A DNA stretch of 64,000 nt, taken from contig OX597830.1 of assembly GCA_951406725.2 (NCBI GenBank), positions 7,626,001 to 7,690,000 on the forward strand, in the 5' to 3' direction. The position numbers were made by a program, and so were the translations under genes. The notes beneath the pieces are model-generated. The model ran no database searches. It was not told the origin of the DNA and was given only the letters and a program-made list of their open reading frames with translations. The DNA is from Octopus vulgaris. Taxonomy: Eukaryota. This document shows positions 23,982 through 33,455 of this stretch, one piece after another (position 1 is the stretch's first letter; each line of letters starts with the position of its first letter).

Positions 23982-24023
<42 letters not shown>

Positions 24024-24124
24024 TATATATCTTTTTTTCTTTTATTCTTTTACTCTTTTCTTTGTTTCAGTCTTTTGACACACACACACACATATATGTA
24101 TATAAATATATATATATGTATGTA

Positions 24125-24162
<38 letters not shown>

Positions 24163-24181
24163 TATATATATAGATAGATAT

Positions 24182-24248
<67 letters not shown>

Positions 24249-24249
24249 T

Positions 24250-24415
24250 AGGACAGGCTTCTTTCAGTTTTCGGTTACTAAATCCACTCACAAGGCTTTG
24301 TTCGACCCAAGGCTATACTAGAAGACGCTTGTCCAAGGTGTCACGCTGTAGGACTGAACCCGGTTCCATGTAGGCAGTAAGCATGCTACTTACCACACAG
24401 TAACTTCTGCGCCCA
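24250..24415 (-). mobile_element. OR2-like SINE 5' half
   Basis: AAATCCACTCACAAGGC..GGACTGAACCCGG..TACCACACAG. Confidence 0.75.
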
Positions 24416-24950
24416 TATTTCTATATATATATATATATATATATTTCCGACGTGCGTCAGTTAAGATGTTAATAATCTCTTTTTATCTAATGTCGTCCAC
24501 CTTTCGTCATCTACACTAACTACATACATGCTTCACTTTTACTATCGTCATTCATACATTTCGATACCTGGATCGTACTTACCTATTAACACATACATAT
24601 GTGTGTGTGTTTGCGTCAGTGTGTCTATGCGTTTAGAGAGAGGGACAGACGGACAGACAGAAAGACAGAGTATTTGATTGATTGATTGATTCTAGTTTCA
24701 GCTCACGAGCTGTGGCCATGCTGGGGCACCGACGGTATGATGTATTCTAATTTATCAATATTTTTATACGTGCGGATTCACCAGCGCGGTAAGCACTCCG
24801 CCAGATTGCCATCTTAATTTGATAACAATATTGCGCAAGAATATATATATAATCTCTAAGATCGTCGTACTATTTCTTCTAGATTATACGAATTTTTAAA
24901 TATATATACACACACATACATATATATATATATATATGAATATATATATA

Positions 24951-25992
24951 TTTTTTCTTGTTTCAGCTCAGAGCTGCGGCCATGCTGATGCACCGCGGTT
25001 TTGTGCTACACTGTTATTACGAAGAACCTCCTCTAATATGTGGCACTTGGTGAAGAATGGAGTTTGATATAGCTACTCTCATTTGCACCTCTTGCCGTGA
25101 GGTAGGTTCATCTGGGACTCTCGACAGAAAGATGTCCAGTTTTGATTTAAAAACCGCTACATCTACTTTGTGCAAGTTCCTCAGACTCTTTGGGAGAATA
25201 TTAAAAAGCTGTGGGCTCTTGAAATCCAGGCTGTTGCAGAAGCTGGTCCTGAAGCGTGATGGCATTGCTGGGATCTTTGGCACTATGCAGTGTCATCCCG
25301 TTCTAGCATTGGTGTATCTTACAATGCCAAAATTTGGCACAATTTCTTCTAGGATATTCCAGACATATATTACTGAATACCTCTCCCGTCTTGTCTCCAG
25401 GGAGTAGAGTCTTAGCTGTTTCAACCTTTCCCAGTAGCTGAGCTGTTGCAAAGAGACGATCTTCTTTGTGAATCTTCTCTGGATTGCTTCAAGGTCCGCT
25501 GTTAATTTTACACTGGTGGGTGACCATAGCTGTGAGCAGTAATCCAGGCGACTGAGGACGAATGTCCGCCAGAGGACCATCATGGTTTCCTTATCTCTGG
25601 TTCTGAATGTTCTTAGGATCCATCCAGCCAGTCGTCTGCACTTTGTCGCCATCCTGGTAATGTGCACTTGGAAAGAGGTATCATCACTCATGTCGATACC
25701 CAAGTCCCTCACAGACTTAGGCTCTGGGTTTGAAATTTCCTGAGGACCGGTGTATCCTGTAAGTTTAATATTCAGTTTTGGATGCTGGTAGCGCAGGACC
25801 TGGAATTTTTCAGCATTAAACTGCATATTATTATCCTCAGCCCATCTGTAGATTGAGTCCAACTCCTGCTGCAGGTGTGCAACAAAGCTGGGGTTCTGTA
25901 TTTTCTGCGAAACTTTCGTATCGTCTGCATAGCTGGCCAGAGTGGCTATCCGGGCATTTGAGAGCATATCTGAGAGGGCCACTATAAAAAGC

Positions 25993-25993
<1 letters not shown>
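24951..25993 (-). mobile_element. 5'-truncated CR1/L2-group LINE (RT C-terminus and 3'UTR, frameshifted)
   Basis: YADDTK, MQFNAEKFQVL, RDLG, LDYCSQLWSP, LEAIQRRFTK, FKSKLDIFL motifs; 3' stem-loop tail. Confidence 0.9.
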
Positions 25994-26045
<52 letters not shown>

Positions 26046-26163
26046 CAATTAAGGAACGGCCATAATAGGCCATTCACCCACTAGAAATAACAGCCAAAGC
26101 TTCTACCGCAAATAAAGATCAATTCCGTTAACAGGAGAAAATTAAAAAAACATTTACCCTGTA

Positions 26164-26270
26164 ATTTCTTGTACGGTATACCGTTTCATTCGCTGTTTAA
26201 TGGCAAACTAACCTGATTAAATTAAATCAAGCCAATCTTCCATAAGCCCTCGAATTCTTCAGCAAGAAAT
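26164..26270 (-). ncRNA. Intact type I hammerhead ribozyme (copy 1)
   Basis: Reverse complement of 27061-27167; predicted cleavage between 26172 and 26171. Confidence 0.9.
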
Positions 26271-26655
26271 AGCTCAAGTCGGAACAGATATTTACACGAG
26301 GCATCTCGAACCTTGCCAAGGCAATATCTGACCTAAAATTTTCAAATCGTCGCACTCGCGCCAAATTTATCGGCAGCAAATAAATATCAGCCGTCGATTC
26401 CATTACGGAATTAACCAAAAAATTCATAATTAATCAATATAGGGTGGCAAGGAAAATTTTGTAGAAATTTATTGCCACCAGCGGCCCAGTGGGAAAAAAA
26501 TTAAATAGTCATAGACCATTTTTAAGTTCAACATTAACAATTAAGGAACGGCCATAATAGGCCATTCACCCACTAGAAATAACAGCCAAAGCTTCTACCG
26601 CAAATAAAGATCAATTCCGTTAACAGGAGAAAATTAAAAAAACATTTACCCTGTA

Positions 26656-26763
26656 ATTTCTTGTACGGTATACCGTTTCATTCGCTGTTTAATGGCAAAA
26701 CTAACCTGATTAAATTAAATCAAGCCAATCTTCCATAAGCCCTCGAATTCTTCAGCAAGAAAT
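26656..26763 (-). ncRNA. Intact type I hammerhead ribozyme (copy 2)
   Basis: Same as copy 1, 492 bp away; predicted cleavage between 26664 and 26663. Confidence 0.9.
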
Positions 26764-27060
26764 AGCTCAAGTCGGAACAGATATTTACACGAGGCATCTC
26801 GAACCTAAAAATGGTCTATGACTATTTAATTTTTTTTCCCATTGGGCCGTTGGTGGCAATAAATTTCTACAAAATTTTCCTTGCCACCCTATATTGATTA
26901 ATTATGAATTTTTTGGTTAATTCCGTAATGGAATCGACGGCTGATATTTATTTGCTGCCGATAAATTTGGCGCGAGTGCGACGATTTGAAAATTTTAGGT
27001 CAGATATTGCCTTGGCAAGGTTCGAGATGCCTCGTGTAAATATCTGTTCCGACTTGAGCT

Positions 27061-27167
27061 ATTTCTTGCTGAAGAATTCGAGGGCTTATGGAAGATTGGC
27101 TTGATTTAATTTAATCAGGTTAGTTTGCCATTAAACAGCGAATGAAACGGTATACCGTACAAGAAAT
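27061..27167 (+). ncRNA. Intact type I hammerhead ribozyme (copy 3)
   Basis: Stem I ATTTCTTG/CAAGAAAT; core CTGAAGA 27069-75; stem II ATTCG/CGAAT enclosing a 58-nt hairpin; GAAA 27144-47; stem III ACGG-TATA-CCGT; GUA site, cut after 27159. Confidence 0.92.
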
Positions 27168-27705
27168 TACAGGGTAAATGTTTTTTTAATTTTCTCCTGT
27201 TAACGGAATTGATCTTTATTTGCGGTAGAAGCTTTGGCTGTTATTTCTAGTGGGTGAATGGCCTATTATGGCCGTTCCTTAATTGTTAATGTTGAACTTA
27301 AAAATGGTCTATGACTATTTAATTTTTTCCCACTGGGCCGCTGGTGGCAATAAATTTCTACAAAATTTTCCTTGCCACCCTATATTGATTAATTATATAT
27401 ATATATATATATAGATAGATAGATAGATATATGTACGTGGGCTTTCTGTGTGTATGTGTGTGTGCATCGTGTATGTTTGTGTTAACGTGCGTATGTGTAT
27501 GTGTATCTGTTTTTCTTTTTGGGTGATTAATTTCTAATAGAAAAAAATAAATAAACGATGTGTAAAGACTGCCAGGCACCTGTAGCAATTTCTACAACAC
27601 GGCCATTAAATTTGATAAGCAGTTTTATGGTTGACTTATGAACCCGGCACATACTTTCTTGTATATCTGTATGTATATGTACATATGTGTATATACATAT
27701 ATACA

Positions 27706-27868
<163 letters not shown>

Positions 27869-28110
27869 GGATATATATATATGGATATATATACGCATGC
27901 ATGTATGTATGCACGTATGTATAAAACTACATAAATACACATATATATTTACAAAAGTATATTGCGATTCAGTTGTGTATATATAAGTGTGTATGAGAGT
28001 GTATGTGAGTTTGTGTCTGTGTGTGTGTACATATATATATATAATATACCTATATATACATGTATGTATGTATATATATACATATATATATATATATACA
28101 TACATATGTA

Positions 28111-28146
<36 letters not shown>

Positions 28147-28965
28147 TGTATGTATGTATGTATGTATATTTATGTATGTATATATGCGAACGCTCATAAT
28201 TAGAAACGCAAGTACTCATTCATACGTAGATATCAATGAAACCCCTAACCCAACACACACATACGTGTGTGTGTGTGTGTGTTCTCAAAACATGCCCCAC
28301 CCCTGTATATGATAATGTCACTTCACTACATAGCTGATGACCGTTTGTGAGCTAAGCCCCATACCTATATTGTTGCTGTAATTAGTGAGAAATTATACAT
28401 AAATTAGGCACTAATTACTGTGTCTATATAAGCATGGGGCTAACTTGCTTATTTCCGGCTTGTTACTGTTTTCTTTTCGCTTGTATCCTAAATTTTATTG
28501 TTTTTTATTTAATTGTTCTTTTTTTTTATTTGGATGTTATTTGTTTGTTTTGTCGCATACCAGAATTGGATGGGTTTCGTGTGTATATATTCGACCGTGT
28601 GTTCGTGTGGGCATTGAATCACATAAAAACGCATACATTTTTGTGAATACATACACTCATAGACAACATATATATATATATATATATACATACACATATA
28701 TATATACACATATATATATTCACATATATATATATATAAACATATATATATATACATATATATATACACATAAATCTGCATATATATATATATGTATGTA
28801 TATGTATTTATACATATATATGTGTATATATATGTCCACATATACATATATATATATATACGTTTGTATGAATAGGCATACGTATATACGTAGACATATA
28901 TGTATGTGTATGTATATACATGTATATATGTATATATGTATATATATGTATATACGTATACACAA

Positions 28966-28996
<31 letters not shown>

Positions 28997-29399
28997 CGTA
29001 AACACACATCCTCATACACATATATAAATAGAAAGAAAGAGATGCTTATTCTTGTAAAAAAAACATTGACTTACAAGGAAATAAGGACTTTAATAAGAAA
29101 AACAAATTTAAGTATTTACAACTTACAATGCGACTGTTGGTTCAGAGTTCCGGCAAATACGGAAAATATTAAAAATAGAACTAAATGGTTCACATATATA
29201 AATAATGTAGGAATGTAAAAGATGTGAGAGGTTGTTTGAATGTCTAAAGTATGATTATTCATAAAATCTTAAAGCGAAAATTTCCTAAGGTGAATTTGCG
29301 TTCAATATATGGCTACTGGAATGTGGCTCGCGTAGGGGGTAATTACATATGTGACGGATGCAAAGGTGATACCTACAACCATCCAGCGAAGTAAATATC

Positions 29400-29755
29400 A
29401 CTCCCCAGGAAAAAGGCCATCAGACTGAACCTTCGACGATCATTAAGCCTACATTCCGAAGCCCCAGACTGGCAACTGAGAGTGGATCTCGTGGAACGGT
29501 TAAAGTTCCTAGATCACACTGCACAAACTACACTACGCGCAGACATTGTGGTCTTCTCGGATTCCACCGAACAGGAGAACCTGTGGGAACTGACTATGCC
29601 CTGGACGAAGCTCATGAGGGGAAACTTGTTAAATACCAGGAGCTGGTTGAGTAGAGCGGAAATCGAAGCTGGCGGGCAAATACACAAAACCACATGAGAC
29701 TCCCGGAGCATTACTGACGATGTATCCCGGAGCATCCGCGGGATGTGTCTTAAGA
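29400..29755 (+). mobile_element. 3' fragment of HERO-clade RLE non-LTR retrotransposon
   Basis: APDWQLRVDLVERLKFLDHTAQTTLRADIVVFS..WELTMPW, then frameshift to EAHEGKLVKYQELVE. Confidence 0.75.
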
Positions 29756-29937
29756 CTATCATATATTATATATATATATATTATGTATATATAGATATGT
29801 ATATATATGTATGTGTACATATACATATGTATATACATACATATATATATATTCATATACATATACATATACATATATGTGTATATATTTATATATGGCC
29901 TGGGCCAATAATGGCCGAAACCTATCAAAGTATCAAA

Positions 29938-30024
<87 letters not shown>

Positions 30025-33102: not shown

Positions 33103-33455
33103 CAGTGTGAAATTAATGAAATTAACAGCGGACCTTGAAGCAATCCAGAGAAGATTCACAAAGAAAGATCGTCTCTTTGCAACAGCTCAGCTACTGGGAA
33201 AGGTTGAAACAGCTAAGATTCTACTCCCTGGAGAGAAGACGGGAGAGGTATGCAGTAATAGAGGTATGCTGGACATCTTCCTGTCGAGAGCCCCCGATGA
33301 ACCTACCTCACGGCAAGAGGTGCAAATGAGAGTAGCTATATCAAACTCTTTTATTCACAAAGTGCCACATATTAGAGGAGGCTCTTCGTAATAACAGTGT
33401 AGCACAAAACGGCGGTGCAGCAGCATGGCCGCAGCTCTGAGCTGAAACAAGAAAT
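33103..33455 (+). mobile_element. Second, internally deleted 3' copy of the CR1/L2-group LINE
   Basis: Near identical to parts of 24951-25515 (KLTADLEAIQRRFTKK..DEPTSRQEVQMRVAISNS). Confidence 0.85.

Follow-up and report, generated by a model that had tools for sequence, protein, structure and literature searches.

What kind of element is the inverted repeat that lies within a (TA)n microsatellite at 26041-27396 of the window (the whole 64-kb stretch of Octopus vulgaris DNA analysed here), and by what route was it inserted? The initial annotation had described a non-coding 492-bp unit, repeated head to tail and then inverted in near-identical copies, and had read it as a young hammerhead retrozyme. 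Indeed, BLAST of 26041-26532 against the 64-kb window returned, besides the query itself (100%), 26533-26806 (99.6%, with one extra base) and, in inverted orientation, 26801-27290 (99.2%) and 27291-27396 (99.1%), with TA on both sides; no further copy of the unit was found in the window outside the element. The copies form two arms joined 5'-to-5' (Table 1), and the array holds just 1.56 units in the left arm and 1.2 in the right. We number the unit from q1, the base directly 3' of the predicted cut. Its longest ATG-started ORF has 66 codons, its GC content is 37%, no tRNA gene was found in it, and no convincing Pol III box or tRNA head was seen. The (TA)n target masks any target-site duplication, which is unreadable there. 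Abutting the left TA run is a LINE fragment (24954-25990, minus strand), truncated at its 5' end and bearing a YADD reverse-transcriptase motif, that we take to be CR1/L2-like; a second piece of this fragment lies inverted at 33269-33454.

Table 1. Features of the element in the 64-kb window, and loci of two other families in the same genome (L, locus labels)
Feature	Position	Strand	Remarks
Left (TA)n target microsatellite	25993..26040	.	
Left arm, 766 nt	26041..26806	-	q351-492, whole monomer, q1-131; 3' end at fixed site A
492-nt monomer bounded by two predicted cleavage sites	26172..26663	-	
Type I hammerhead 1	26164..26270	-	predicted cut 26172/26171
Type I hammerhead 2	26656..26763	-	predicted cut 26664/26663; extra U in stem II insert
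5'-to-5' inversion junction	26801..26806	.	6-nt overlap, 5/6 bases fit both arms (microhomology)
Right arm, 596 nt	26801..27396	+	q135-492, then q1-238; 3' end at fixed site B
Type I hammerhead 3	27061..27167	+	predicted cut 27159/27160
'Tail' of ~107 nt spanning sites A to B	27291..27396	+	right end only
Right (TA)n/(TAGA)n flank	27397..27432	.	
Sister-family loci	L119:1958-3106; L120-L144; L165-L184		
Inverted loci of the 781-aa Penelope-like element	L064, L087, L089, L150, L151, L157, L160		

A type I hammerhead descriptor run over both strands of the 64 kb gave exactly three matches, all inside the element and at the same coordinates as the three complete hammerheads first annotated, with H17 at 26172 (-), 26664 (-) and 27159 (+). 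Each is made up of an 8-bp stem I, CUGAAGA, a 5-bp stem II with a ~60-nt hairpin insert, GAAA, a palindromic stem III and GUA. In the isolated 113-nt motif the hammerhead is both the minimum free energy (MFE) and the centroid fold (z -4.8; 0 of 200 shuffles were equally stable), and the predicted fold of the monomer is likewise stabler than shuffles (z -4.9). The suggested search with Rfam hammerhead models failed to recover the motif: over 24000-30000 at E 1 it returned microsatellite noise only, and over the element no hammerhead match appeared even at E 10, probably due to the long stem II insert. In fold predictions, the pairing probability of stem I fell from 0.96 in the isolated motif to about 0 with 130 nt of downstream sequence, the hammerhead being favoured only without the downstream 40-130 nt. 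In the folded circle, the hammerhead form was predicted to lie 3.2 kcal/mol above the MFE, so that circles could persist; the same difference casts doubt over efficient cleavage. Predicted retrozymes are reported to have failed to cleave in 8 of 9 cases (bioRxiv 10.64898/2026.07.22.740005).

The pattern of substitutions points to constraint on the hammerhead. In five variants of this family and a sister family (below), a small sample of related sequences, 175 of 175 stem-pair cells were paired, and four hammerhead pairs had been altered on both sides, two of them within-family in stem II; slid controls gave 0 compensatory changes. All three hammerhead motifs tested were intact in 113 of 121 full units. 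From the compensatory changes and the intact motifs, the hammerhead would appear to be under selection. A further proposal, that the unit is an RNA replicon, was not borne out. In the 64-kb window the descriptor search placed the hammerhead in the sense polarity of the unit only, the antisense folds weakly (-92.5 vs -140.3 kcal/mol for sense), and nothing pointed to RNA-to-RNA replication; signs of a viroid-like replicon (ribozymes in both polarities, RNA-to-RNA replication) were thus lacking, with Rfam as the only check for other ribozyme classes.

The unit belongs to a dispersed family. Its own genome (2.8 Gb) offered 1,313 candidate places, and scoring of 40 of them gave at least 243 matches, those listed being 93-100% identical; the exact 24-nt cleavage junction is present in 226 copies genome-wide (control, 0). 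A sister family, 89% identical and ~490 nt long, has at least 1,830 junction copies, with a GUC or GUA triplet (loci in Table 1). Most units of the family are 485 nt long; the 492-nt type seen in the window makes up a minor subfamily, common to loci L013 and L014. Among 121 full units, substitutions averaged 0.70 within a locus vs 4.3 between loci. No matching ORF was found beside a repeat copy at any of 57 loci. Two pairs of loci (L019/L020 and L024/L025) have matching flanks and are apparently segmental duplicates or alternative haplotypes, not independent insertions.

Animal non-LTR retrozymes, as described in PMC7229834 and bioRxiv 10.64898/2026.07.22.740005, share with the element a tandem, non-coding unit that is a few hundred bases long and poor in GC, a type I hammerhead in each unit, the lack of LTR structure and the presence of Penelope-like elements in the same genome. 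The family is made of dispersed, mobile copies of non-LTR organisation, non-coding and without a tRNA gene, and hammerheads 1 and 2 stand in tandem on the same strand. By the sequence criteria for this group, drawn also from PMC4209133 and PMC9977147, the element is an animal non-LTR retrozyme, an additional member of a class itself already known. Retrozyme repeats of 150-450 bp and circles of 150 to >1000 nt are given in PMC7229834, and the family lengths of 51-972 bp in bioRxiv 10.64898/2026.07.22.740005 include 492 nt, contrary to the idea that this family is larger than those known. Unlike animal non-LTR retrozymes, the element carries the ~60-nt stem II insert that Rfam models miss. Unlike them as described in these sources, it occurs mostly as inverted pairs, joined 5'-to-5' within (TA)n, whose ends are fixed. 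No homologous pseudo-LTR was found in the Penelope stretches examined here (below).

The initial annotation had anticipated permuted ends; instead, the 3' ends of the arms are fixed at two sites, A (q131) and B (q238), that is, 131 and 238 nt beyond the predicted cut. We surveyed ends in 40 loci (39 fetched and the window), taking q125-136 as site A and q228-245 as site B; L020, the duplicate of L019, was dropped before counting, and L024 and L025 were both retained. A TA run flanks both sides in 34 of the 40 loci. Simple inverted pairs account for 28 loci, of which 25 combine an A end with a B end and none has A+A or B+B (p 6e-8); of the remaining three, two form a duplicated pair that has a 29-nt arm, and the third ends at q107. 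Among 17 further loci, judged by eye, 9 of 10 simple inverted ones were A+B. The sister family uses the same A and B ends: in 33 loci, 21 of 26 simple inverted ones were A+B and none had two alike (two complex loci were left out of this count, and about five arms mis-split by BLAST were left in). Arm ends share 2-3 nt of AT with the target, arms are up to 7 kb long, and many cross several A and B sites (L029, L031, L040, L049). Such fixed ends are not in themselves evidence of a circular template. Pairing of sites A and B as a single helix is no more than an idea: ~12 bp formed in local folds of q100-260, were absent from longer folds and from the circle, and were tied with another partner window. 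A short inverted element in (TA)n at L117:5895-6220, about 69% identical to q60-235, ends at the positions equivalent to A and B.

EN+ Penelope-like elements (PMC8557442, PMC3846280, PMC11167929) show the same combination of partial tandems, a 5'-truncated inverted arm and a tail at one end, together with a microsatellite or AT-rich target and a palindromic-stem-III hammerhead upstream of two ends. The partial tandem, the inverted 5'-truncated arm and the one-end tail of our element, and an intact EN+ Penelope-like element with a (TA)n target in the same genome (below), are what a non-autonomous Penelope-like element calls for. Unlike the published EN+ elements, ours has no ORF, its tail is 107 nt vs 30-40 bp, its arms often hold several units and end with the short AT match, and its 3-bp stem III (with a 15.1-16.1 pair) should permit monomeric folding. 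A Penelope protein has been shown in vitro to nick AT-rich DNA and to extend both of its strands, with starts at two internal positions of the RNA that delimit the tail seen in the genome; insertion did not require cleavage (PMC11167929). The Penelope tail is described as often or optionally at a single end (PMC8557442, PMC3846280), and a strict rule of one end of each kind is absent from the available parts of these three papers. The A/B rule sharpens the 'optional tail' into a testable rule of two-site priming. No publication on this family or on the rule was found in the open-access literature, which leaves its absence from print unproven, and the supplements of bioRxiv 10.64898/2026.07.22.740005 may list similar families.

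A GIY-YIG search of the genome gave 6,136 candidates, and the 70 stretches examined (50 + 20) were mostly of one family. One young element of the genome, present in many copies that are mostly 98-99% identical, encodes reverse transcriptase (RT), a CxxxxCxxC Zn-linker and GIY-YIG in an intact ORF of 781 aa; such a linker is reported for the Neptune and Nematis clades (PMC8557442). The pseudo-LTR of this element is ~504 bp long. Its ends in (TA)n fall at two sites separated by 40 nt, and 7 of 7 inverted loci among the 70 stretches have one end of each kind (Table 1). Mobilisation of animal retrozymes by Penelope is a published hypothesis, based on co-occurrence and pseudo-LTR similarity. Here the insertions themselves bear the Penelope signature, and the same rule of one short and one long end holds in an intact Penelope-like element of the same genome. 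The proposal of a young, dispersed hammerhead retrozyme mobilised by a Penelope-like element is thus supported by the junction copies, the A/B rule and its counterpart in the 781-aa element, and we are confident, short of certainty, that the retrozyme family is genuine and young and that its insertions carry a Penelope footprint. BLAST of the 70 Penelope stretches found only short repeat copies homologous to the unit, none in a pseudo-LTR, and no alignable sequence was found between the unit and the 781-aa family or other Penelope fragments; the 781-aa element therefore shows the footprint of the mechanism and is not a proven partner. Other Penelope families are also present in the genome. Penelope fragments near some repeat loci were considered as the partner and rejected as separate insertions. 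One young TA-targeting Penelope-like element (L085:1244-6460; G000:C6:133343243-133348459) has an extra 479-codon frame, with no convincing Pfam match, overlapping the start of its 781-aa ORF, and a degenerate hammerhead-like motif in its pseudo-LTR.

In LINE-1 twin priming, two cDNAs are made from two target ends and joined by microhomology, which yields an inversion. Two-end priming and a microhomology-joined inversion would be common to both systems. Unlike in twin priming, both starts are fixed and internal here, and both arms can cover the same sequence repeatedly.

Our preferred reading, which we consider likely, is that one RNA, probably circular and processed by the hammerhead, was copied by a Penelope-like protein from both ends of cut (TA)n to give two arms with fixed ends. 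A source array would give multi-unit transcripts, which the hammerheads would cut into 485-492-nt monomers, probably ligated to circles. A Penelope-like RT/GIY-YIG protein, the presumed enzyme, would nick both (TA)n strands, and cDNA would start inside the RNA, at q131 at one DNA end and at q238 at the other. Each cDNA would run for more than one unit and, as the arms show, often halt just short of the cleavage site, presumably at the barrier discussed below. Joining of the cDNA ends by microhomology would then leave the observed 5'-to-5' inverted structure, in which one end has the 107-nt tail. With its short RNA, both start sites mapped and a candidate enzyme available in intact form, the system lends itself to testing.

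The shape of the template is the less certain part of this reading. The two arms of one locus differ by no more than one base at 21 of 25 loci; this extends to rare haplotypes, which are alike in both arms and are matched by no arm at other loci. Locus-private variants are fixed in 4-8 segments at L035, L046 and L049, and across both arms in L035 and L049. Such haplotypes fit repeated copying of one monomer, and they fit a homogeneous multimer too. At L018, two alleles at q254 and q356 are mixed across 15 full units, which is not expected from one circle; this long array (L018:971-8937) interleaves alleles over units and both arms, by mixed templates, later conversion or assembly polishing. 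The same two-site Penelope insertion could have used a linear transcript of several units, cut in part by the hammerhead, with no circle, a possibility that we regard as real but unlikely. A circle is unnecessary for fixed internal starts (PMC11167929), a cut 5' end would explain stops near q1, the L018 mosaic suits a mixed template, and homogeneous daughters are also expected from homogeneous parent arrays. However, private variants fixed in all 4-8 segments suggest a bottleneck of one monomer, arms extend for kilobases (up to 7), and coral, mussel and axolotl retrozymes are mainly circular (PMC7229834). We lean, with modest confidence, towards a circular template. A-to-I editing of the RNA was considered and found no support (locus-fixed A>G 8 vs T>C 6 of 28; the set includes repeats, and polarity is uncertain). 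Single-unit changes on the sense strand are skewed to C>T (13 vs 5 G>A; n=49, small numbers) and sometimes clustered in one segment; sites include window positions 26842 and 26850 and locus L027.

The 5' ends of the arms bear on whether the ribozyme acts on this template. In q1-40 we counted 22 of 63 arm 5' ends vs 5.4 expected from exposure (p 6e-9), a density of 3.2 stops per kb ahead of the cut, compared with 0.27 per kb immediately past it and 1.3 per kb in the best other window. In the sister family, q1-40 held 10 of 59 stops vs 5.0 expected (p 0.026), and in a second locus set, chosen for carrying the junction, 4 of 25 vs 2.6 expected (p 0.26, not significant). The stops are spread across q1-37, not concentrated at q1. 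The exposure and haplotype analyses were run without L042, L106, L113 and L118 (complex or diverged), and the exposure test also without L014 (gap). The pile-up near the predicted cut suggests that cleavage may occur in vivo and offers a genomic hint of a ribozyme acting on a real template. About 1 in 8 passages stops near the cut, so the barrier would be leaky; it might be the 5' end left by a cut, a scar of ligation or a cleavage event while the template is being copied.

Both arms could also come from a single cDNA that folds back on a hairpin and copies itself, with the far end resolved by an endonuclease. Self-priming of this kind is proposed in PMC3846280, and resolution of the tail by endonuclease in PMC8557442; at some loci both arms do stop at a like position (L025, 92/92; L027, 185/185; L173, 295/295; L175, 184/183). 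Hairpins, however, equally supply microhomology for the joining of two cDNAs, two start sites have been demonstrated in vitro (PMC11167929), and the constant pairing of one A with one B, in many arms that cross several such sites, would require an extra rule. We consider this origin improbable. The argument made for an origin of retrozymes from the pseudo-LTR (bioRxiv 10.64898/2026.07.22.740005) would allow the unit to be an orphan pseudo-LTR left by a Penelope element, in which the hammerhead is no longer relevant, the arrays having grown later at the DNA level. DNA-level turnover might explain the L018 mosaic, and the hammerhead is disfavoured in long folds; yet no copy adjoins a matching ORF in 57 loci, compensatory changes occur inside the family, 5' stops cluster at the cut, and both window arms exceed one unit despite only 1.2-1.6 copies, which together leave this explanation with very little likelihood. 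Inverted repeats beside (TA)n are a known type of artefact, but an assembly or amplification chimera, which the initial annotation had named as a possible source of the tandem-plus-inverted structure, can be practically dismissed given the hundreds of exact junction copies (226, and at least 1,830 in the sister family), the same architecture, fixed A/B ends and differing junctions at dozens of loci, in many contigs and in two other families, and related sequence in runs under five organism codes, with contigs compared for two.

Returning to copying of one processed RNA from both target ends, we offer a more specific version tentatively, as doubtful in its details. A dimeric Penelope protein on one RNA circle might prime both cut TA strands at two fixed sites 107 nt apart; the polymerase might strip the downstream pairing that keeps the hammerhead from forming, and the hammerhead might then cut the template ahead, ending rolling-circle synthesis. 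If so, the hammerhead would put a brake on copy number, and RNA structure would be what the helper recognises in a retrozyme with no discernible sequence homology to it.

For RNA, we looked in contigs of six sequencing runs presumed to be RNA and of a seventh, large run whose type is not stated, none of them on record as RNA. These contigs cover the unit, at depths relative to the neighbouring LINE of ~4 (X5), 0.2 (X8) and 1.7 (X15), judged by eye. In X12, a 478-nt wrap-around contig is equally compatible with tandem DNA and with a circle. As for the window locus as a source, the minus-strand cuts proposed at 26664/63 and 26172/71 and their 492-nt spacing proved correct as predictions, whereas release of the monomer from this locus is doubtful. 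Two hammerheads in tandem are present in the left arm only, where 43 nt precede the first of them. A minus-strand read-through transcript would probably contain the antisense of the right arm first and fold back through it onto the left arm, as a long hairpin with ~490 bp of pairing; release would thus need transcription to begin close to the junction. Monomers are more likely to come from arrays that are longer or not inverted.

Two other repeats in the genome carry a hammerhead with a long stem II insert, one at L060:1-570, in an inverted pair that ends in (TA)n beside a Penelope copy, and one in the 2133 region of L090 (-).
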